DNA of 64,000 nucleotides from an uncultured Candidatus Saccharibacteria bacterium (lineage in GTDB: Bacteria; Patescibacteriota; Saccharimonadia; Saccharimonadales; UBA10212): contig CAYWQH010000009.1 of the NCBI GenBank assembly GCA_964460855.1, positions 1,351 through 65,350 of the forward strand, given 5' to 3'. The position numbers and the translations under genes are program-made. This document shows positions 7,019 to 18,319 of the stretch, piece by piece. The first letter of the stretch is position 1; each line of letters opens with the position of its first letter. The notes under the pieces are model-generated. The model had not been told where the DNA came from, made no database searches, and saw only the letters and a program-made list of their open reading frames with translations.

Positions 7019-8383
7019 GTGTTCAAAAAGCGAAACCTGGCCATACTTGGCGCCTTGGTTGGCGTCTCGCTGGCCACGGTGCTGGCCATGTCGGCCACTG
7101 CCAGTTCGTCCACCAAGGCCGTCAACACCCCTATGGGGCAGATCATCCCGGCCTCCCAGGCCCTCAAGCTGGTCAAGGCCTCGCGCCTGAACCGCAAGGT
7201 GCCGGTCGGCTTCTGCGCCCGCAACGGCGTGATTCGCTGGCTCTTCGTCGGCGGCGACGCGCAGGACCCCCACATGACGAAGGCGATGTTCATCCGCGAC
7301 TACGGCAACACCGCCGCGATCCCGGCCATGGAACGGGGCTTCGCCTGCATCAGCCATAACGCGGCGGCCATCGCGGCCGTTTCGCGTCAGCTGGTGTGGA
7401 ACATCCACAAGGGCCACGTGTCGTCCTGCAAGGTGCTGTCCGGCACCTACCTGCCCGCGCTCGGCTACCACTACCTCCGCCATCCATCAATCAAGGCGGC
7501 GGTGTGGTCCGGCAAGGGCACGCTGGGCTGCGTGCAGTCGACCGTCAAGGGCGTGCCCTTCGGTCGTACCTGGGAGGCGATGTGCGGCCCGGCCGTTTGC
7601 ACCTACCAGCGCGTCGCCGACGCCACGTTTGCGGCCGTCAACCGCAGGCCCGGCGGCCCCGATGGCAGCGGCTGCGGCAACATGATTCCGAAGATGATTC
7701 GGACTCGCATCGTGCTGGTGCGCAAGCGATTCCCGGTGGCGAACTTCGCTACCAAGGGCTGGAGCTTCGCGGGCCTGCCTTGGCAGATGCCGGCTGGCGC
7801 CGCGCACCTGCTGGTTAAGTTCCGGCCGCTCAACCCCATCAGCCACAAGTTCGGCGCCGTGACGTCCACGGTGGTCGCCACCCACAACGGCGCCATCTCG
7901 CTGGGCAATGCCTGGCCAGGGTCCCAGTACTGGGTCGCCGAGCTCCATCCCAAGCCCGGCACGGTCGTCATCGACCCGACCACCCACGTGTCCTACAACA
8001 TGGACGCCTGGACGGTCGACCCGCGCGTGCTGACCTTCACCGTCGGCGCCCATCCCACCACGGTCCACTTCGGCAACACGGCCGCGCCATGCATGTGCGT
8101 GGAGTGCATGGGCCACGGCAACTTCGCGGCTGGCTACACCTACACCCGGGAGTTCATGATCACCAGCTGGCAGGGCCCGATGGACGCCCACGCCAAGAGC
8201 CTGATCAAGATCTCTTCGACAACGCCGGCTACGGTCCAGTTCGTCTCCTTCACCACGACCCAGCCGAACCAGTTCGGCGACGTCCTGGTCCAGGTGACCT
8301 TCAAGGCCCTCCAGGCCGGCGCCGGCAACTTGCACGTCGCGTTCGGCAGCGTCCACGATGACGCCCCGCTGACCGTCAAGTAG
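7019..8383 (+). CDS. secreted cysteine-containing protein of unknown function (GC-rich cassette)
   Basis: GTG start 6 nt after AAGGAG. N-terminal signal peptide 'MFKKRNLAILGALVGVSLATVLAMSATA'. Third codon positions are almost all G/C, which picks this frame over the overlapping shadow ORFs. Confidence 0.75.
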   Translation: MFKKRNLAILGALVGVSLATVLAMSATASSSTKAVNTPMGQIIPASQALKLVKASRLNRKVPVGFCARNGVIRWLFVGGDAQDPHMTKAMFIRDYGNTAAIPAMERGFACISHNAAAIAAVSRQLVWNIHKGHVSSCKVLSGTYLPALGYHYLRHPSIKAAVWSGKGTLGCVQSTVKGVPFGRTWEAMCGPAVCTYQRVADATFAAVNRRPGGPDGSGCGNMIPKMIRTRIVLVRKRFPVANFATKGWSFAGLPWQMPAGAAHLLVKFRPLNPISHKFGAVTSTVVATHNGAISLGNAWPGSQYWVAELHPKPGTVVIDPTTHVSYNMDAWTVDPRVLTFTVGAHPTTVHFGNTAAPCMCVECMGHGNFAAGYTYTREFMITSWQGPMDAHAKSLIKISSTTPATVQFVSFTTTQPNQFGDVLVQVTFKALQAGAGNLHVAFGSVHDDAPLTVK

Positions 8384-8564: not shown

Positions 8565-8831
8565 ATGTCGGTGAAATTACAACCGTTAGCGGACTACGTC
8601 GTGGCCGAGCAAGAAGAAGCCGCCACCAAGACAGCCAGTGGGCTGTACTTGCCAGAAAAAGCCGCCGAGAAGCCAAAAGTCGCCAAAGTATTATCAGTAG
8701 GCAAAAACGTCAAAGAAATTAAAGCCGGCGACCGGATAGTTTACAAAAGCTATTCAACTACCGAAGTAAAAGTCGAGAACAAAGAGTACATTTTAGTTAA
8801 AGAAGAAGACGTCCTGGCGACGGTTAAATAA
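8565..8831 (+). CDS. groES: co-chaperonin GroES
   Basis: 'LQPLADYVVAEQEE...ASGLYLPE' mobile-loop pattern; SD AGGAGG upstream; directly precedes groEL. Confidence 0.9.
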   Translation: MSVKLQPLADYVVAEQEEAATKTASGLYLPEKAAEKPKVAKVLSVGKNVKEIKAGDRIVYKSYSTTEVKVENKEYILVKEEDVLATVK

Positions 8832-8851: not shown

Positions 8852-10498
8852 ATGGCTAAAAAAGTTTTTTATGACGACGACGCCCGCCGCCGCGTGTTGG
8901 GCGGGGCAAAAGTTTTATACGACGCTGTGAAAACCACTATGGGCCCCAAAGGCCGCAATGTGGTGATCAGCAAAAGTTACGGCAACCCAACTGTTACCCA
9001 CGACGGCGTAACAGTTGCTAAGGGTGTAGACCTGGAAGACGTCGACGACGAAACCCTGGGCTACAAAGTCGGTGCCGAGCTGATCAAGCAGGCCGCCAGC
9101 AAAATGAATGATGTAGCCGGTGACGGCACAACTACCGTAACGGTTTTGACTTACCATATTTTAAGCGAAGCGAATAAGCTGATAGCCGCCGGCCACAGCC
9201 CGATGCTGCTGCGCAAAGGGCTGGAAGCCGCCTCGCACGAAGTATTAACCAAGCTTGGCGGCATGGCCGAAGATATTGCCGGCAATAACAAGCGGGTGGC
9301 CGAAGTTGCCACCATTAGCGCCGGCGACGCCGAAATCGGCAAGCTAATCGCCGACGTCATGGATAAAGTCGGCAAAGACGGCGTAGTTACCGTAGAAGAA
9401 GGCCAGGGCCTGGCCCTGGAGAGTGAAGTCGTCGAAGGTTTCACTTTCGACCGCGGTTACGTCAGCCCTTATATGGTTACCGACACGGCCCGCATGGAAG
9501 CCGTTTACGATAAACCAGCCATCTTAGTTACCGACGCTAAAATCAGCTCCATCCAGGACTTTTTGCCGATGCTCGAAAAACTGGCCCAGTCCGGCAAAAA
9601 AGACCTGGTTATCGTAGCCGAAGACGTCGACGGCGAAGCTTTAGGAACATTAATCCTTAACAAACTCAAAGGCGTTTTCAATACCGTCGCCATAAAAGCC
9701 CCAGCCTTTGGCGACCGCCGCAAAGAAATTTTAGAAGATATCGCCATATTAACGGGCGGCCAGGTCATCAGTGAAGAGCAGGGCACCACGTTCGAAAATG
9801 CCGAGCTGGATATGATCGGCACCGCCCGCCGGGTAATCGCCACTAAAGACGAAACGACGATTATCGAAGGCAATGGCAGCCAATCGGCCATCAAAGAGCG
9901 GATTGCCCAAATCGCCAAGCAAATCGAAGCCGCTACTAGCGAATACGACAAAGAAAACCTCGAAAAGCGCCGGGCCGCTTTGCAGGGCAAGGTTGCTGTA
10001 ATTAAAGTCGGCGGCGCTACCGAAACCGAAATCGAAGAAAAGAAATTCCGCGTCGACGACGCCGTGCACGCCGTTAAAGCCGCATTGGACGAAGGTATTG
10101 TGCCGGGTGGCGGCGTCACGCTGGTAAACCTGATATTCGAAGTCACTCCGCTTACATCCGAACATACTTCGGTACTTGCCGGCCAAAGCTTACTGTTCAG
10201 AAGTTTCGAACAGCCATTCCGCATTTTGCTGGACAACGCCGGTATTAACCCCGACGAATGGTTGCCCCAGGTCCGCAAGGCCAAGCCGGGCCATGGCGTA
10301 GATGTCAGCAATCCGACCAAGCTTGTTGACCTTAAAGCTGCTGGAATTATTGACCCGGCCCGCGTCACTAAAGAAGCAATCCAAAACGCTGTGTCGATTG
10401 CCGGTACAGCTATGACCATGGGCGCTTTAGTTGCAGATGTGCCAGAGCCAAAATCCGCCCCGACTCCCGATATGGGCGCAATGGGCGGAATGATGTAA
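8852..10498 (+). CDS. groEL: chaperonin GroEL
   Basis: 'AGDGTTTVTVL', 'VAVIKVGGATE' and a C-terminal 'GGMM' tail; 548 aa. Confidence 0.97.
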   Translation: MAKKVFYDDDARRRVLGGAKVLYDAVKTTMGPKGRNVVISKSYGNPTVTHDGVTVAKGVDLEDVDDETLGYKVGAELIKQAASKMNDVAGDGTTTVTVLTYHILSEANKLIAAGHSPMLLRKGLEAASHEVLTKLGGMAEDIAGNNKRVAEVATISAGDAEIGKLIADVMDKVGKDGVVTVEEGQGLALESEVVEGFTFDRGYVSPYMVTDTARMEAVYDKPAILVTDAKISSIQDFLPMLEKLAQSGKKDLVIVAEDVDGEALGTLILNKLKGVFNTVAIKAPAFGDRRKEILEDIAILTGGQVISEEQGTTFENAELDMIGTARRVIATKDETTIIEGNGSQSAIKERIAQIAKQIEAATSEYDKENLEKRRAALQGKVAVIKVGGATETEIEEKKFRVDDAVHAVKAALDEGIVPGGGVTLVNLIFEVTPLTSEHTSVLAGQSLLFRSFEQPFRILLDNAGINPDEWLPQVRKAKPGHGVDVSNPTKLVDLKAAGIIDPARVTKEAIQNAVSIAGTAMTMGALVADVPEPKSAPTPDMGAMGGMM

Positions 10499-10502
10499 GA
10501 AA

Positions 10503-10530
10503 ATGAGACACCCGCAAGCGGGTTTCTCAT
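10503..10530 (+). terminator. groEL terminator hairpin
   Basis: ATGAGAcACCCGC-aa-GCGGGTtTCTCAT, immediately after the groEL stop. Confidence 0.55.
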
Positions 10531-10703
10531 CGCGCCGGGCAAAAAGTGTGATTTTTGCTCGGGCTGCTCTTCCCACCAGCTAAGACCGGGTCGAAGTAAA
10601 TTCGACTCGGGCTGTTCACCCGCAAGAGGATAAAAAGATCCCGAAGTAAATTAGGGATCTTCTTTATATATCTTAAAAATTATGCGTGACCTCTGTTATA
10701 TAA

Positions 10704-10732
10704 TTGACATAAAGTAGTAAAAATTGTAGAAT
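10704..10732 (+). promoter_or_regulatory. consensus sigma70 promoter (TTGACA-17 nt-TAGAAT)
   Basis: TTGACA at 10704-10709, a 17-nt spacer, TAGAAT at 10727-10732. Confidence 0.6.
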
Positions 10733-10785
10733 ACTGCCGATCTAAGACTTTGCCGTAGGACCACAGAGGATCTACGGCCTGCCCG

Positions 10786-11643
10786 GTGAAACCGACAGAA
10801 ATGAGGAATATACGGGCGAAGCTAGAGACCTTACAACTGGAATGTACTACGAATAAGGAAGAGGGATTATCTAACAACAAGACCAGTGGCGTTCGCAAGG
10901 CACCGCTCCGCGGGCCGGTCGAGGAAGAGTACGACACTTCGCCGAAGTGGCTGAAGGGTTCGAATCCCCGCGCCAGTAAGCACGCCCCGACCGACAAGCT
11001 CATGCCGACGATCGACGGTGAACTTCTACCGGTCGTGGAGGTGAGGACGGTTGATGGCTACCAGGACGCGGTGGGCACGTATTTCCGCCACATCTACCGC
11101 ATCAAGCGGCAGCCCAAGCTGTGGAGCGGGCCGGCTCATGTCCAGCTGACACACGCGCTGCGCTTCTTCAATATCGCGTCGCGCAAGCTCAGCAACAAGG
11201 CATACCGCCGGGTAGGCCATGAAATCGGCACCCAGGGTAAGATCATGGAAGACCCCGCGGACCTCCTAAAGCGGGCCGGCGCCTCGAAAGCCGTAGCCGA
11301 GAAGATTGTTGTCGACCTGCTGGAGCTCGAACTGCTCCAGCGCCAGCCGAACGGTGTTTACCACGTGCTGGCCAAGCGGCTTGTCGTCATGGCTGGTGAC
11401 TTGCCGTATCCCGAAGAGACCAACGAGCAAGGAGGCACGATCTTGCCTGTCCAAAAGAGCAAGCGCCGCCGCGCCCCCGCGCGCCCTGCGTCGCCGGATT
11501 ACCAGAAGCTACTGGACGAGTTCCAGTTCGCTTCGGAGGAGTTGAGCGAGCACTTCAGGGAGCTCGTCGAACGGAACGCTGAGCTCGAGGCGGAGAACGC
11601 CAGGATGCGCCCTGTCTTCGACATGGCTCACCGCGTCAAGTAG
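10786..11643 (+). CDS. hypothetical protein, GC-rich cassette (possible winged-helix region plus C-terminal coiled coil); start uncertain
   Basis: Longest ORF, with a GTG start. GC3 bias rises from about 10890. An alternative ATG at 11002 lacks an SD. The C-terminus 'ELVERNAELEAENARMR' looks like a coiled coil. Confidence 0.55.
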   Translation: MKPTEMRNIRAKLETLQLECTTNKEEGLSNNKTSGVRKAPLRGPVEEEYDTSPKWLKGSNPRASKHAPTDKLMPTIDGELLPVVEVRTVDGYQDAVGTYFRHIYRIKRQPKLWSGPAHVQLTHALRFFNIASRKLSNKAYRRVGHEIGTQGKIMEDPADLLKRAGASKAVAEKIVVDLLELELLQRQPNGVYHVLAKRLVVMAGDLPYPEETNEQGGTILPVQKSKRRRAPARPASPDYQKLLDEFQFASEELSEHFRELVERNAELEAENARMRPVFDMAHRVK

Positions 11644-11657
11644 TGCATCTAGTGGCC

Positions 11658-11691
11658 GGGCGGGCAGTACTCTATGTGAGTACGCCCGCCC
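11658..11691 (+). terminator. GC-rich hairpin terminator
   Basis: GGGCGGGCaGTACTC-tatgt-GAGTACGCCCGCCC. Confidence 0.55.
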
Positions 11692-11821
11692 TGCGCGGAA
11701 GTCCACGAATAAAAGTCGTGCTGATGAGCCATATTTGGCGAAACTTCCAACAATTAGCAAATCGTTTTTTTGCCAAATAGCCTAAAATGTAGTATTGTAG
11801 AGAAGTTAATGGAGCTAAAAA

Positions 11822-12280
11822 GTGAGGCCATTTTGGCGCCGCGACGAAGTTACACCTTCGGAAGCATCAGACCTAGAACAGTATTATGCCAACCAGCGCG
11901 CGAGTAACAGCTGGTTGTCGATGCTTGCCACTTTGCTGGCTATTGTTTTAATTGGAGTAGCCGTATTCTTCAGTGCCCGCTGGCTGTACAACAAATTCCA
12001 TAGCAATAAACCAGCCAACGCGCCGGTAGCAACCCAAAATGTTGCGCCGCCGCCAACTTCAAATTCGCAGCCGACCAACCCTCAACCGGCCAACCCCCCG
12101 GCTAATACCTACACTACTCCCAGCCCCACCACCACTGCTCCGCCCACCACCCAAACGGCTCCTCCGGCTACCAGCGCTACACCCAATACCGGACCGGGCA
12201 ATACCATCGCCATATTCTTAGGCGCCACAGTATTGGGCGCCGTAGTTTACCAGTTGCGCGCCCGCAGCCAAGCCGAATAA
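11822..12280 (+). CDS. membrane protein with Pro/Thr-rich region and C-terminal hydrophobic anchor
   Basis: An N-terminal TM helix, a P/T/N-rich low-complexity region, and the C-terminus 'TPNTGPGNTIAIFLGATVLGAVVYQLRARSQAE'. Confidence 0.5.
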   Translation: MRPFWRRDEVTPSEASDLEQYYANQRASNSWLSMLATLLAIVLIGVAVFFSARWLYNKFHSNKPANAPVATQNVAPPPTSNSQPTNPQPANPPANTYTTPSPTTTAPPTTQTAPPATSATPNTGPGNTIAIFLGATVLGAVVYQLRARSQAE

Positions 12281-12348
12281 CCCTAACACCTAATTGACTA
12301 CTAAGCATAAGTGTGATAGAGTATTATTGAAATTCACCAAAAACAAAC

Positions 12349-13809
12349 ATGTCCGAACAAATTCAAACACCTCCCGAAATTGTCCCCGAAGATAGCTTGA
12401 AACCAGTTGACCGACAGGTAGCTGATAAATTTTTTGACGGCTTAGCAGCCGAAGGTTTGAGTGAGTTCCAGGATCCGAACAAACTGCAGGCAGCCAAAGA
12501 AGCTGCTGCCGATCTTATCAAGCGCACCAAACTTCAACCGGAATTTTTCGAAAATGGCGGCCGGGCAGTAGTTTTTGCCGGGTTGGCTCATTTGCAAGCC
12601 TCACATAGTGATTCAGACCGCTACGGCCAGCGTTTTGCCTACAAGTCTTTACTGGAACTAGGCAAAACTTTTATAGATGAAAGCTTGAGTCAAAAGAAAG
12701 AGAAATTGGCAGACGAAGAGGAACTGCAAGTTTTTAAAAAGTATCAAAACACTGAGCTAACATCAATGCTTGAGGAATATCTGGAAACTTCAGGCGTACT
12801 TACCGAAACTCACCGATCTTTAGGCGTAACTCCGGATACAGAAGAACCTTTTGAAGTATTAGTTCTGGATATAGCCGATGGCTATACATGGGCAGGAATA
12901 GGCGTAGACATTCCCGAAATAGACGATTATGACGACTCAGAATCTTTTGACGACCCGGCATTTAAAGAAGCCGTCCAGAAAGCAGCGGAACTTCGAGAAG
13001 ATGAATCCAGACTAGAGCAAAACCTTGCACAGATGGCTGCTGAATTGCAGCAAGATGGTTTTCCGCCTGCCTGCGTCGTACAGCTAAACGGCAAAAAATA
13101 TTATGTTTTCCAAAACCCAACCGCCAGAAAATTAATGCAGCGGGTAAGCACCACGTCTTATTACGATGGATATAACGCTGAAGCGGACCAGGCTTTTTTG
13201 CAACATGAGTACGTTCATACCCAGCGGTTTAAAGGCTTAGGCTATAACACGGTTATGGGCATTACGTTGGAAGAAGTCCGGGCCGAAGAACTATCTGGCA
13301 ATAAGCATGGCTATGATGATGCCAAAACTTTTTTGGAGGAATTCAGCGTCATAACTGGCGCGGACATGTATGGCCTTTTAGAAAGTAACGCTACAAAGCC
13401 AGACGCTGGGGATATCTATTTAGAGCTGGCCAAAAAAGCCGGCTTGGAAGTTATGACAGAGGTTGCGTTAGTTTTGCCCAATGCGTATGCCAAACGAAAA
13501 AATGAACCTAATATGACAGATATCCAGACCAGGATTGGCGGCTATGCCAGCATAATTTCCAGACTGGAAAGCCAAGCGCCCAACGATGAAGCCGCAGTTC
13601 GCATCCGTGATTACTCAGAACACAAAGTGCGTCAAATAAGGGAGATAAACCAAAGGGATCGGAAAGAGGGTGGCCGTTTTATTATGACACCAGAACTATG
13701 GGCCAATTACTTTAACTATGGCCCTGAATTATCGGGACTAAAGAAAGAAGTTATCAGGTTGTACCGCGAAAAATACGGCCCGGAACCGGAAGAAGACCAA
13801 GTAGGCTAA
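12349..13809 (+). CDS. hypothetical protein with HExxH motif (putative metallopeptidase)
   Basis: 486 aa. 'LQHEYVHTQ' contains HExxH. I recognise no other family signature. Confidence 0.45.
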   Translation: MSEQIQTPPEIVPEDSLKPVDRQVADKFFDGLAAEGLSEFQDPNKLQAAKEAAADLIKRTKLQPEFFENGGRAVVFAGLAHLQASHSDSDRYGQRFAYKSLLELGKTFIDESLSQKKEKLADEEELQVFKKYQNTELTSMLEEYLETSGVLTETHRSLGVTPDTEEPFEVLVLDIADGYTWAGIGVDIPEIDDYDDSESFDDPAFKEAVQKAAELREDESRLEQNLAQMAAELQQDGFPPACVVQLNGKKYYVFQNPTARKLMQRVSTTSYYDGYNAEADQAFLQHEYVHTQRFKGLGYNTVMGITLEEVRAEELSGNKHGYDDAKTFLEEFSVITGADMYGLLESNATKPDAGDIYLELAKKAGLEVMTEVALVLPNAYAKRKNEPNMTDIQTRIGGYASIISRLESQAPNDEAAVRIRDYSEHKVRQIREINQRDRKEGGRFIMTPELWANYFNYGPELSGLKKEVIRLYREKYGPEPEEDQVG

Positions 13810-14637
13810 TTATTCGGCCGGAGTGTTTTGCGGTGGATGGTTTTGGGTGAAGTAGTTTATTTCGTTGATAACATCTAAAAGGGCTTGGGCCCGGGTTTGT
13901 TCATCGGTGATTTGCTTGGCGGCTTCGTAAGCCGTGCGCACCATCGCCGCGTTATCGGTGGCTTGGATCATCATCATGGTGGTGCGGAATTTTTCTTCGG
14001 GTGTTTGCTCGATGTGGTCTACCAGCGGCGCCAAGTTTGCTAAAGCTTCTTGTTTTACATCTAACAATTCGTCGGTATCTACCGGGCCGGCCGCGGTTGG
14101 GTCGGGCAAGTTCAAGCCCATTGAAGGCGCTTCGGCCGCAGTGGTATCGGCGGCTTCGGGCTCTGGGGCCGGGGAGTCCATAGGCACAGGGTCGGGCATT
14201 GCCGTTGGATCGGGCATGGAGGAGGCGGCATCGGCGGCCGCGCTATCAACCGAGGGTTCGGTGGCTGCCGGTTCAACGGCGGCTGGTTCGGCAGTTGCCG
14301 GGGCGGCTGTACCATAATTTGTAAACGGGCCGGGGCTGGCGGGCACCGCAGCGGGTAAATCAGTTTGGGGCATTTCGGGCGCGCTGGCAACCGATGATGC
14401 GGAGCTGGCAACCGGCGGGGCCGGGCTGGTGACCACCGGGGAGCTGCTCAACTGGGCGGCGACTTCGGCGGCGGTTGGCATAGCGCCTGCTGCCGGGCCG
14501 TTTGTGGCCATGGCATCGTCCATAGCCGGCATAGCCGGCATGGCAGCTCCCGCCGAAGAGTTATCCATAGGCTGGCTGGCGCCCGCTGACGGGTCAGCGC
14601 TGTTTACGGTTCCGAACATTCCACCCCCTGAGTCCAA
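13810..14637 (-). CDS. Ala/Pro-rich low-complexity protein with helical C-terminal domain
   Basis: 275 aa. The N-terminal two thirds are A/P/S/T-rich and the C-terminal roughly 90 aa are ordered and helical. Shadow ORFs on the other strand were rejected. Confidence 0.5.
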   Translation of the reverse strand: MDSGGGMFGTVNSADPSAGASQPMDNSSAGAAMPAMPAMDDAMATNGPAAGAMPTAAEVAAQLSSSPVVTSPAPPVASSASSVASAPEMPQTDLPAAVPASPGPFTNYGTAAPATAEPAAVEPAATEPSVDSAAADAASSMPDPTAMPDPVPMDSPAPEPEAADTTAAEAPSMGLNLPDPTAAGPVDTDELLDVKQEALANLAPLVDHIEQTPEEKFRTTMMMIQATDNAAMVRTAYEAAKQITDEQTRAQALLDVINEINYFTQNHPPQNTPAE

Positions 14638-18229: not shown

Positions 18230-18319
18230 GGAGAGGTCGCATAGTGGCCGAGTGCGCTACCTTGGAAAGGTAGTATAGGGGCAACTCTATCGAGGGTTCG
18301 AATCCCTCTCTCTCCGCCA
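18230..18319 (+). tRNA. tRNA-Ser (anticodon GGA), CCA encoded
   Basis: Acceptor stem GGAGAGG/CTCTCTCC, anticodon stem-loop CTACC-TTGGAAA-GGTAG, a long variable arm, T-arm GAGGG-TTCGAAT-CCCTC, and a terminal GCCA. Confidence 0.9.

Follow-up and report, generated by a model that had tools for sequence, protein, structure and literature searches.

A region that includes a GC-rich block at positions 10876 to 11700 of the 64,000-nucleotide stretch of DNA analysed here (hereafter the window) very probably carries one acquired protein-coding gene, a member of a rare winged-helix and coiled-coil family, in which a 23-nucleotide sequence resembling the 3′ end of a tRNA simply forms codons 57 to 65. 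The 3′ ends of tRNA genes are attachment (att) sites for tyrosine-integrase islands and prophages, and the initial annotation had proposed that an integrase left this 23-mer behind as a relic att site or tRNA 3′ end. Our analysis indicates instead that its bases are normal codons specifying a conserved motif, and that it is neither a tRNA fragment nor an att site.

The open reading frame (ORF) lies on the forward strand, where its frame is open for 294 codons and closes with a stop codon at 11641 to 11643. It encodes 285 amino acids if translation begins at a GTG at 10786 (10786 to 11643) or 280 amino acids if it begins at an ATG at 10801, and the public gene call (P0001, 280 amino acids) corresponds to residues 6 to 285. 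Only weak, badly spaced Shine-Dalgarno-like sequences are seen on direct reading near these two candidate starts. The initial annotation had considered the start unclear and the frame open from 10786. The open frame stands, but the downstream ATG at 11002 (Met73) that had been offered as a start is excluded by homology, because related proteins align from residues 32 to 57 of the query onward. Moreover, coding sequence with donor-type composition, which encloses the 23-mer, begins 126 nucleotides upstream of this ATG. A predicted sigma-70-type promoter, TTGACA-17-TAGAAT, is located at 10704 to 10732 and matches the consensus at 11 of 12 positions, in agreement with the earlier description of this site. 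The gene would thus be a single unit with its own promoter and a start at GTG 10786 or ATG 10801. Following the stop codon and still within the GC-rich block, an inverted repeat at 11655 to 11694 on the same strand (GC-rich, 11-nt arms, 18-nt gap, no T-run) might form a hairpin at the end of the transcript, and it was not called as a terminator by our scan.

The base composition of the locus changes sharply within the ORF. GC content climbs from approximately 0.45 to 0.62–0.65 at about 10876 to 10890, close to the switch noted at the outset near 10890, ranges from 0.57 to 0.73 in 60-nt windows across the block, and drops after about 11700. In the ORF frame, GC at third codon positions (GC3) is 0.8 from 10876 and then stays between 0.7 and 0.95 to the stop codon, with GC3 > GC1 > GC2. 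For the ORF as a whole, GC3 is 0.77 as compared with a genome mean of 0.557 (SD 0.084, 836 ORFs), such that values of 0.77 to 0.8 are about 2.6 standard deviations above the mean, and the foreign composition first suspected for this block is borne out. Furthermore, searches of 60 relatives for the window protein and of 400 other genomes belonging to the class for its N-terminal domain gave 0 matches each. On these sequence comparisons, a higher-GC organism is the most likely source of the gene. The promoter and the first 30 or so codons have a native-like GC content of 0.42 to 0.55, and the acquired DNA may therefore begin inside the ORF, in which case the N terminus would be a fusion. This 0.98-Mb genome has 19 ORFs with high GC3, the window gene among them, and most are orphans. 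These GC-rich orphans form a distinct class and may be a trace of genes captured by a bacterium with a reduced genome.

An exhaustive phmmer search of 1.84 billion representative sequences with the window protein recovered nine homologues besides the query itself (E values of 2e-7 to 1.9e-4). A profile search with alignment A2 yielded five proteins, two of which were new (P0011 and P0012), and a search with the N-terminal domain of P0006, a full-length homologue, gave two proteins and no new ones. A word-indexed search with the window protein returned only the protein itself, and a narrow search of species-representative genomes with a single peptide pattern produced 15 matches, none of which was confirmed. 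The homologues, 11 in all, are uncharacterised and share 23 to 29% identity with the window protein. No family match was found in Pfam, NCBIfam, or PHROG, with nothing meaningful emerging from NCBIfam, and PDB sequences searched with a profile yielded just coiled-coil and ArsR-type winged helix-turn-helix hints (E of 0.005 or weaker). A feature search of the ESM Atlas with the P0006 N-terminal domain gave best scores of 0.89 to 0.91, mostly to unnamed clusters, which is within the range for shuffled proteins. As judged from these comparisons, the window protein is short for its family, which is very rare and unnamed, comprises approximately 12 metagenome singletons, and has no Pfam entry.

An AF2 model of the window protein based on the family alignment (mean pLDDT of 64) predicts beta strands between residues 69 and 106, a helix at 117 to 132, a winged helix at 152 to 200, and a long helix at 237 to 274. 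Together with the alignment, the model defines a family-specific N-terminal domain (residues ~43 to 132; 10912 to 11181) that includes the beta strands and the first helix and carries the motifs G-(S)-N-P-R/K..H.P and LW.GP.H..LTHALR. The region that follows (residues 114 to 203; 11125 to 11394) has a core modelled with pLDDT values of 74 to 94, wherein a helix-turn-helix (helices 157 to 163 and 168 to 180) precedes a beta-hairpin wing (strands 184 to 186 and 192 to 194), as expected for a winged helix. At the C terminus, residues 237 to 274 (11494 to 11607) form a single helix (pLDDT of 83 to 89) that aligns to the C-terminal helices of the homologues and gives weak TSC22 and YabA matches, consistent with a coiled coil. 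The modelled structure shows this domain architecture, and it agrees with the winged-helix segment and coiled coil that had been suggested from the translation.

Superposition of residues 114 to 203 by VIA-align gave CooA as a match (Z of 7.0, rmsd of 2.9, 75 residues aligned), with the winged-helix domains of CRP, LexA, MarR, and IdeR at Z values of 6 to 6.8, although Z values of 6 to 7 are at a level common for unrelated models according to the notes of the tool itself. The window protein thus resembles the winged helices of bacterial regulators (CooA, the C-terminal domains of CRP/FNR, the N-terminal domain of LexA, MarR, and IdeR), with rmsd values of 2.1 to 3.4 Å over 58 to 79 residues. 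Unlike these regulators, however, it has the family-specific N-terminal domain, and a C-terminal coiled coil is present in place of the usual dimerisation elements. Whole Crp/Fnr chains match the model poorly by Foldseek (E of 0.1 to 0.4, TM of 0.17 to 0.32, rmsd above 11 Å) and the protein has no Pfam match; only the winged-helix part superposes. A Foldseek search of the PDB with the window model gave no match at E < 0.1. The product has a single predicted winged-helix DNA-binding module between the family-specific N-terminal domain and the C-terminal coiled coil, and we infer that it would dimerise through the coiled coil and bind DNA, serving either as a regulator or in the manner of replicon-initiator or organizer proteins.

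The predicted structure of P0006 contains two winged-helix modules and a long coiled coil. Foldseek matched this model to entries in the PDB (E of 3e-5 to 3e-2) and in BFVD (E of 8e-6 to 1e-3). The matched tandem-winged-helix binders include RepA_N-type initiators (4pql, 4pt7, and 5kbj; E of 2.6e-3 to 2.7e-2, TMt of 0.34 to 0.44), phage proteins named “replisome organizer” or “replication initiator” in BFVD (E of 4e-4 to 3e-3, TM below 0.3), and TFIIIC tauB. These likenesses come with TM values of only 0.1 to 0.45, high rmsd, and no sequence-family match. In addition, the window copy differs from the tandem-winged-helix binders in that it retains the first winged helix only.

The loss of a module could mean that the ORF is a decaying, pseudogene-like remnant, left by internal deletion from a longer tandem-winged-helix gene and now without function. 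Indeed, the window protein has 285 amino acids whereas eight of the nine aligned homologues have 352 to 551, the whole second winged-helix module (alignment columns ~225 to 400) is missing, and another family copy, at locus L073, seems to be split into overlapping ORFs (639 to 1697 and 1543 to 2184). We nevertheless consider this explanation unlikely. All 285 codons lie in an uninterrupted frame and show the donor-type pattern of codon-position GC, the N-terminal domain, winged helix, and coiled coil are all kept and confidently modelled, and a near-consensus promoter-like site lies upstream. Contigs of four DNA runs, all from one study, also carry the locus unchanged, with 0 differences over 10544 to 12613 in X1. 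None of these contigs joins across the cassette in a manner that skips it.

Locus L073 provides the only homologue whose genomic context could be recovered. There, as in the window, the family gene is located directly downstream of the 3′ end of groEL, and at both loci some 260 nucleotides of spacer, along with a hairpin, separate the two genes. In the window, an array of hairpins close to groEL spans 10496 to 10680. The window therefore supplies both an additional member and a second groEL-adjacent context for this very rare, uncharacterised winged-helix, coiled-coil family. The promoter scan of L073 gave only one 9/12 site, which overlaps the groEL stop codon. By eye, we noted TTGACC-17-TATAAA at 520 to 548 of L073, a string that the scanner rule (T at position 6) excludes.

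Two further histories for the gene can be weighed against this context. In the first, the undescribed tandem-winged-helix, coiled-coil family would act in the replication or maintenance of a minimal mobile unit that lands repeatedly just downstream of groEL, and the window gene would be one of about 19 mostly orphan high-GC3 genes captured by a small-genome soil bacterium from high-GC donors, such as a host organism. We regard this scenario as quite unlikely. In contrast to tandem-winged-helix replication proteins, the family was not found in the phage, plasmid, and viral-contig records searched. More specifically, neither the window protein nor P0010 had a tblastn match among 50,697 phage records, and P0006 had none among 72,556 plasmids. 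Family peptide patterns matched viral contigs 30 and 12 times with none confirmed, and PHROGs gave no match below an E of 0.09. A mobile-element origin thus draws no support from these searches.

The second is that the gene is native, an ancestral and fast-evolving gene fixed downstream of groEL and lost in most relatives, whose high GC content arises from its own constraints. The shared position, hairpin, and spacer at L073 favour this idea. However, the GroEL C-termini of L073 and the window are only 55% identical and the organisms are therefore distant, gene content after groEL varies (the large gene that comes next, at 12349 to 13809, was found in only 3 of 40 relatives), and both the elevated GC3 and the failure to find the N-terminal domain in the 60 relatives and 400 genomes of the class speak against it. 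We judge native descent to be very unlikely, and acquisition from a higher-GC organism remains our preferred explanation.

The 23-mer, GGGTTCGAATCCCCGCGCCAGTA, is present at 10956 to 10978 on the forward strand as first described and occurs once in the window. It comprises the last base of codon K57, codons G58, S59, N60, P61, R62, A63, and S64, and the first base of K65. Because ORF-frame GC3 rises abruptly to 0.8 at 10876 and remains high up to the stop codon, the 23-mer resides within donor-type coding sequence. Its codons GGT-TCG-AAT-CCC-CGC specify the G-(S)-N-P-R/K motif of the family and coincide with the T-loop consensus GGTTCGAATCC. In a 10-sequence alignment, P61, P68, L112, W113, G115, A124, L125, R126, P157, L160, L161, and G165 are invariant, and G58 is nearly so (kept in at least 90%). 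The motif region reads KGSNPRASKHAP in the window protein as compared with PGSNPRYQDHGP in P0010 and PGNPSYTRHEP in P0009. At L073, the same motif is encoded by CCC GGG AAT CCC, which is not T-loop-like. Since G58, N60, and P61 are conserved in homologues from other organisms, the motif predates any insertion at this site.

An ARAGORN scan confirmed that the tRNA 5′ half is missing, as had been stated, and called only one tRNA in the window, a tRNA-Ser at 18230 to 18319. Rfam cmscan (E ≤ 10, 10400 to 11900) gave no tRNA or tmRNA match; its four weak matches are to unrelated families (E of 0.62 to 4.1), all far below gathering scores. Read directly, GAAGG, which precedes the T-loop, could form pairs at only three of five positions with CCCCG, the proposed 3′ strand of the T-stem. 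The generic T-loop part is the sole testable signal within the 23-mer, and for this 11-mer the naive chance expectation is 0.47 copies in the 0.98-Mb genome. Three copies exist outside called tRNAs; two are at contig ends and the third is the 23-mer site.

We also searched for a tRNA from which the 23-mer might derive. Among the 39 tRNA sequences called by ARAGORN in this genome, the closest are those of tRNA-Gly (gcc and ccc), with 6 of 23 mismatches. Across 400 genomes from its phylum, only one tRNA is within three mismatches, a tRNA-Arg(TCG) of genome G588 that aligns in register and has the same discriminator A followed by three bases (presumably CCA). Approximately nine such tRNAs would be expected by chance, an estimate obtained by multiplying the ~15% that have the exact 13-mer by 0.0035 for the remaining 10 nucleotides and by ~18,000 tRNAs. 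Likewise, 300 genomes of a high-GC phylum (that of G824) gave 0 matches within two mismatches. The near matches in these two samples of genomes do not exceed chance. Thus, tRNAs of the host genome match the 23-mer no further than the generic T-loop, and those of the sampled possible donors give no match beyond chance, the outcome that the initial annotation had named as contrary to its proposal. As far as these sequence searches indicate, the tRNA resemblance of the 23-mer is no greater than expected by chance.

Other marks of integration were sought as well. A search of the whole genome for tyrosine recombinases (PF00589) found only C8:38050-38577 and none on the contig of the window (C9), and no direct repeat of at least 10 nucleotides brackets the GC-rich block. 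A flanking 8-mer, ACGAATAA (10849 to 10856 and 11705 to 11712), was evaluated as a target-site duplication or second att copy and dismissed as chance-level, because an exact 8-mer or longer is common to 13% of random, equally spaced pairs of 81-nt windows in the genome. Like tRNA 3′-end att sites, the window has an exact T-loop consensus, GGTTCGAATCC(C), within DNA of foreign composition. Unlike such sites, its 23-mer is read in frame as part of a conserved protein motif, and no source tRNA, second att copy, or tyrosine integrase on the same contig was found. The proposal that the 23-mer is a genuine tRNA 3′-end relic or att site, brought with or used by the foreign DNA and later read through by the ORF, is therefore extremely unlikely and close to refuted, with the in-register tRNA-Arg(TCG) of G588 and the formally conceivable diverged copy of an unsampled tRNA set against the older conserved motif, its different DNA at L073, and the searches above.

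Codons alone can generate strings of this kind. A 20-mer identical to that in the window, TTCGAATCCCCGCGCCAGTA, occurs at 66 loci among 185,579 species genomes and overlaps a tRNA at none of them. All 66 are antisense in thrS, where the opposite strand reads ...YWRGDS... (64 fit YWRGDS..R[IV]YG and 2 have RLYG). This T-loop-like string is independent and coding-driven, and it serves as a control only, being in an unrelated gene, on the opposite strand, and in another reading frame as compared with the window gene. An exact T-loop consensus with acceptor-like bases can therefore come from codons such as those for G-S-N-P-R, and because this occurs both in the window gene and in thrS antisense of 66 species, isolated look-alikes of a tRNA 3′ half should be read as integrase footprints only when a source tRNA, a second att copy, and a recombinase accompany them. 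The one 20-mer-bearing ORF that was examined has TGS, tRNA_SAD, class II core, and anticodon-binding domains, as in threonyl-tRNA synthetase. A tRNA-Val(GAC) was observed near 24 of the 60 such loci that were inspected.

The open reading frame (ORF) at 10786-11643, encoding 285 aa, lies behind a near-consensus promoter at 10704-10732 (TTGACA-17-TAGAAT, 11 of 12 consensus positions), and the GC content changes from ~0.45 to 0.62-0.65 near 10880 before it drops past ~11700. Both the promoter and the GC switch had been recognized in the initial annotation and are borne out here, as is the 23-mer GGGTTCGAATCCCCGCGCCAGTA at 10956-10978, of which this is the sole copy in the window even when three mismatches are allowed. 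An assembly chimera is rejected, as a 2,070-nt contig from one metagenome run (X1) is identical to the window over 10544-12613 (0 differences), and the promoter-to-ORF junction is covered by contigs of 4/4 runs, all soil metagenomes containing the window DNA that come from one study and of which two may be the source sample.

The 23-mer had been read as the 3′ end of a tRNA and possibly a relic att site. ARAGORN predicts a single tRNA in the window, a tRNA-Ser at 18230-18319, and detects none in the cassette region. Likewise, a search of Rfam over 10400-11900 at E ≤ 10 yields no tRNA or tmRNA match, and the four weak matches obtained belong to unrelated families (E 0.62-4.1) and fall far under the gathering scores. 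On direct reading, the proposed T-stem would pair GAAGG, located 5′ of the T-loop, with CCCCG at three positions only. Among the 39 tRNA sequences that ARAGORN identifies in this genome, the closest (tRNA-Gly gcc and ccc) still differ from the 23-mer at 6 of 23 positions. The generic 11-mer GGTTCGAATCC, for which the naive chance expectation in the genome is 0.47, is found 11 times inside tRNAs and three times outside them; two of the outside copies sit at the ends of contigs and probably represent truncated tRNA genes, and the third is the cassette copy.

Searches of other genomes likewise failed to reveal a source. In 400 other genomes of the same phylum, two sites are within three mismatches of the 23-mer, one in register with the 3′ end of a tRNA-Arg(TCG) and the other antisense within a tRNA-Ser. 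Given that the 13-mer is present without mismatch in ~15% of tRNAs (6/39 here), that ~18,000 tRNAs were sampled, and that the remaining 10 nt match within three mismatches with p = 0.0035, ~9 near-matching tRNAs are expected by chance, and therefore the single tRNA-Arg match is no signal. No site within two mismatches was present in 300 other genomes of the high-GC phylum to which G824, a Solirubrobacterales record, belongs. The genome has a single PF00589 match, which is located on C8 and not on the window contig (C9), and no direct repeats of at least 10 nt were found bracketing the GC-rich block. With no source tRNA found in the genomes searched, no PF00589 integrase on the contig and no bracketing repeat, the interpretation as a tRNA 3′ end or att relic is rejected, and by the reasoning of the initial annotation itself it is refuted. 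The tRNA-like resemblance is real, yet not beyond chance.

The same string is encountered elsewhere in protein-coding DNA. A search for the exact 20-mer TTCGAATCCCCGCGCCAGTA in 185,579 species, each represented by one genome, returned 66 loci, none of which (0/66) overlaps a tRNA or tmRNA according to ARAGORN. The opposite strand of all 66 reads ...AGAYWRGDS..., and 64 fit YWRGDS..R[IV]YG, with RLYG in the other two. The one ORF scanned among these loci (L032:2292-4394) has the domain architecture of a threonyl-tRNA synthetase, with TGS, tRNA_SAD, tRNA-synt_2b and HGTP_anticodon. Because the 66 loci are antisense within coding sequence and none is a tRNA, the string arises there purely from coding. 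We also observed that a tRNA-Val(GAC) shares the locus (up to 8 kb long) with the thrS match in 24 of 60 scanned loci, usually 0.6-1.4 kb away. This pairing spans Solirubrobacterales, Proteobacteria and other groups, and the thrS/tRNA-Val(GAC) neighborhood is therefore widespread.

In the window, the 23-mer is itself coding sequence. In the frame of the ORF, GC3 is 0.45-0.55 as far as ~10875 and 0.70-0.95 between 10876 and the stop codon, with GC1 below it and GC2 lower still, and this order (GC3 > GC1 > GC2) is the hallmark of coding DNA of high GC content. This signal spans the 23-mer and 126 nt upstream of the ATG at 11002. The 23-mer supplies the last base of K57, the codons for G58-S59-N60-P61-R62-A63-S64, and the first base of K65, and the corresponding segment, KGSNPRASKHAP, aligns with PGSNPRYQDHGP, PGNPRYTDHAP and PGNPSYTRHEP of three distant homologues (P0010, P0002 and P0009, respectively). 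In the sole homologue with readable DNA, this motif is encoded by TTG CCC GGG AAT CCC AGC. The T-loop appearance stems from the codons GGT-TCG-AAT-CCC.

These data also bear on the start codon, which had been considered unclear. The use of the open frame upstream of ATG 11002 is indicated by the high-GC coding signal and by homologue alignment from residue 32, and ATG 11002 is an internal codon for Met73. Direct reading reveals only GTG 10786 and ATG 10801 as in-frame ATG, GTG or TTG codons upstream of the motif, and because there is no other common start codon, one of these two must be the start.

The ORF is an orphan-like gene whose product, with a winged helix and a coiled coil, belongs to a rare family that has no name. 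The product reaches no family in Pfam, PHROG or NCBIfam. An exhaustive phmmer search of 1.84 billion representatives recovered the public gene call (P0001, 280 aa, residues 6-285) and nine homologues of 166-551 aa (E 2e-7 to 1.9e-4), which align over their first 130-175 residues to positions 32-191 of the query. The invariant columns are P61, P68, G78, L112, W113, G115, A124, L125, R126, P157, L160, L161 and G165, and those at least 90% conserved include G58, H118, L121, T122 and Q129. The family totals 11 homologues, each a singleton wherever cluster size is reported. A protein search of 60 relatives did not find the product. With a family profile in 401 genomes of the class, the N-domain matches this genome only; five other genomes match at profile positions 267-415 only (E 2e-5 to 5e-4).

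Modeling by AF2 from the family alignment gave a mean pLDDT of 64. Confidently modeled are the beta strands at 69-106 together with a helix at 117-132, a winged helix made up of two helices (157-163 and 168-180) and two strands (184-186 and 192-194), and a single long helix at 237-274, and thus the model agrees with the winged helix and C-terminal coiled coil that had been proposed. With VIA-align against 48,161 chains, residues 114-203 superpose on the winged-helix domains of CooA (Z 7.0), CRP (6.8), LexA (6.7), and MarR and IdeR (6.5-6.6), a Z level flagged as common; Foldseek gives no match at E ≤ 0.001. A full-length model of the homologue P0006 (pLDDT 73) has the same N-domain and winged helix, a second winged-helix module at 239-314 and a coiled coil of ~50 residues. 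In Foldseek this model weakly matches DNA binders with tandem winged helices, namely TFIIIC tauB (E 3e-5) and three RepA_N initiators (4pql, 4pt7 and 5kbj), as well as models of phage proteins annotated "replisome organizer" and "replication initiator"; TM-scores are low throughout. The ORF product aligns to the N-domain, first winged helix, Pro/Ala/Arg linker and coiled coil, without the second module. From this modeled architecture, we propose that the protein forms a coiled-coil dimer that would bind DNA via its winged helices.

The gene was probably acquired. The genome (975,715 bp in 13 contigs, GC 48-52%, with the window at C9:1351-65350; relatives 0.4-2.1 Mb) suggests a Patescibacteria-type lineage with reduced genomes, and its mean GC3 is 0.557. 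The ORF, with a GC3 of 0.77, belongs to a separate tail of 19 among 836 ORFs with GC3 of at least 0.72, consistent with the foreign composition noted earlier. Excluding the ORF itself and one scanned separately, 15 of 17 members lack a Pfam family, the exceptions being an SLT transglycosylase and a Y-family polymerase. Only one tandem pair in the set is related (paralogous at 40% identity), and several members start with signal peptides. The 19 ORFs, examples of which are at C2:19612-21583, C5:71980-76235, C6:73114-74952 and C9:44381-45268, may be a cohort captured from high-GC donors. The promoter and first ~30 codons have native-like GC, and the 5′ boundary is either the naturally AT-richer 5′ end of a gene or a junction of acquired DNA inside the ORF.

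The ORF follows groES (8565-8831) and groEL (8852-10498). L073, a metagenome contig of 2,186 nt that is the sole recovered homologue locus (GC 0.55-0.65 in genes), has the same order as the window: groEL 3′ end, hairpin, ~260-nt spacer and family gene. The GroEL C-termini of the two loci share 55% identity, and these two cases of adjacency may reflect either a conserved position or a recurrent landing site. The L073 gene is split into overlapping ORFs at 639-1697 and 1543-2184 (3′-open), the second of which continues through the later modules and coiled coil; the split is due to a frameshift, which is either genuine or an artifact of assembly. Directly upstream of groES is the separately scanned ORF, at 7019-8383 (+), which encodes 454 aa with a signal-peptide-like N-terminus, has no Pfam or PHROG family, and is GC-richer than the cassette ORF (GC 0.67, GC3 0.91). 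GC-rich orphans therefore lie on either side of the chaperonin operon.

The spacer after groEL (10496-10680) forms four consecutive predicted hairpins (MFE -71.5 kcal/mol, z -6.0). The second, at ~10523-10571, recurs at C2:1807-1855 (49 nt, 96% identical) and, over 31 nt, on C5, and in the metagenome runs 10503-10575 exhibits a depth pile-up with many clustered loose ends from other contexts. These observations point to a short hairpin element repeated in the genome and in other community members. The whole flank downstream of groEL is variable, and the genes beyond the cassette are poorly conserved: 11822-12280 encodes a small membrane protein whose tail is rich in Pro and Thr, 12349-13809 encodes a protein of 486 aa that reaches no Pfam family and was found in only 3 of 40 relatives, and 13810-14637 is a minus-strand ORF rich in Ala and Pro.
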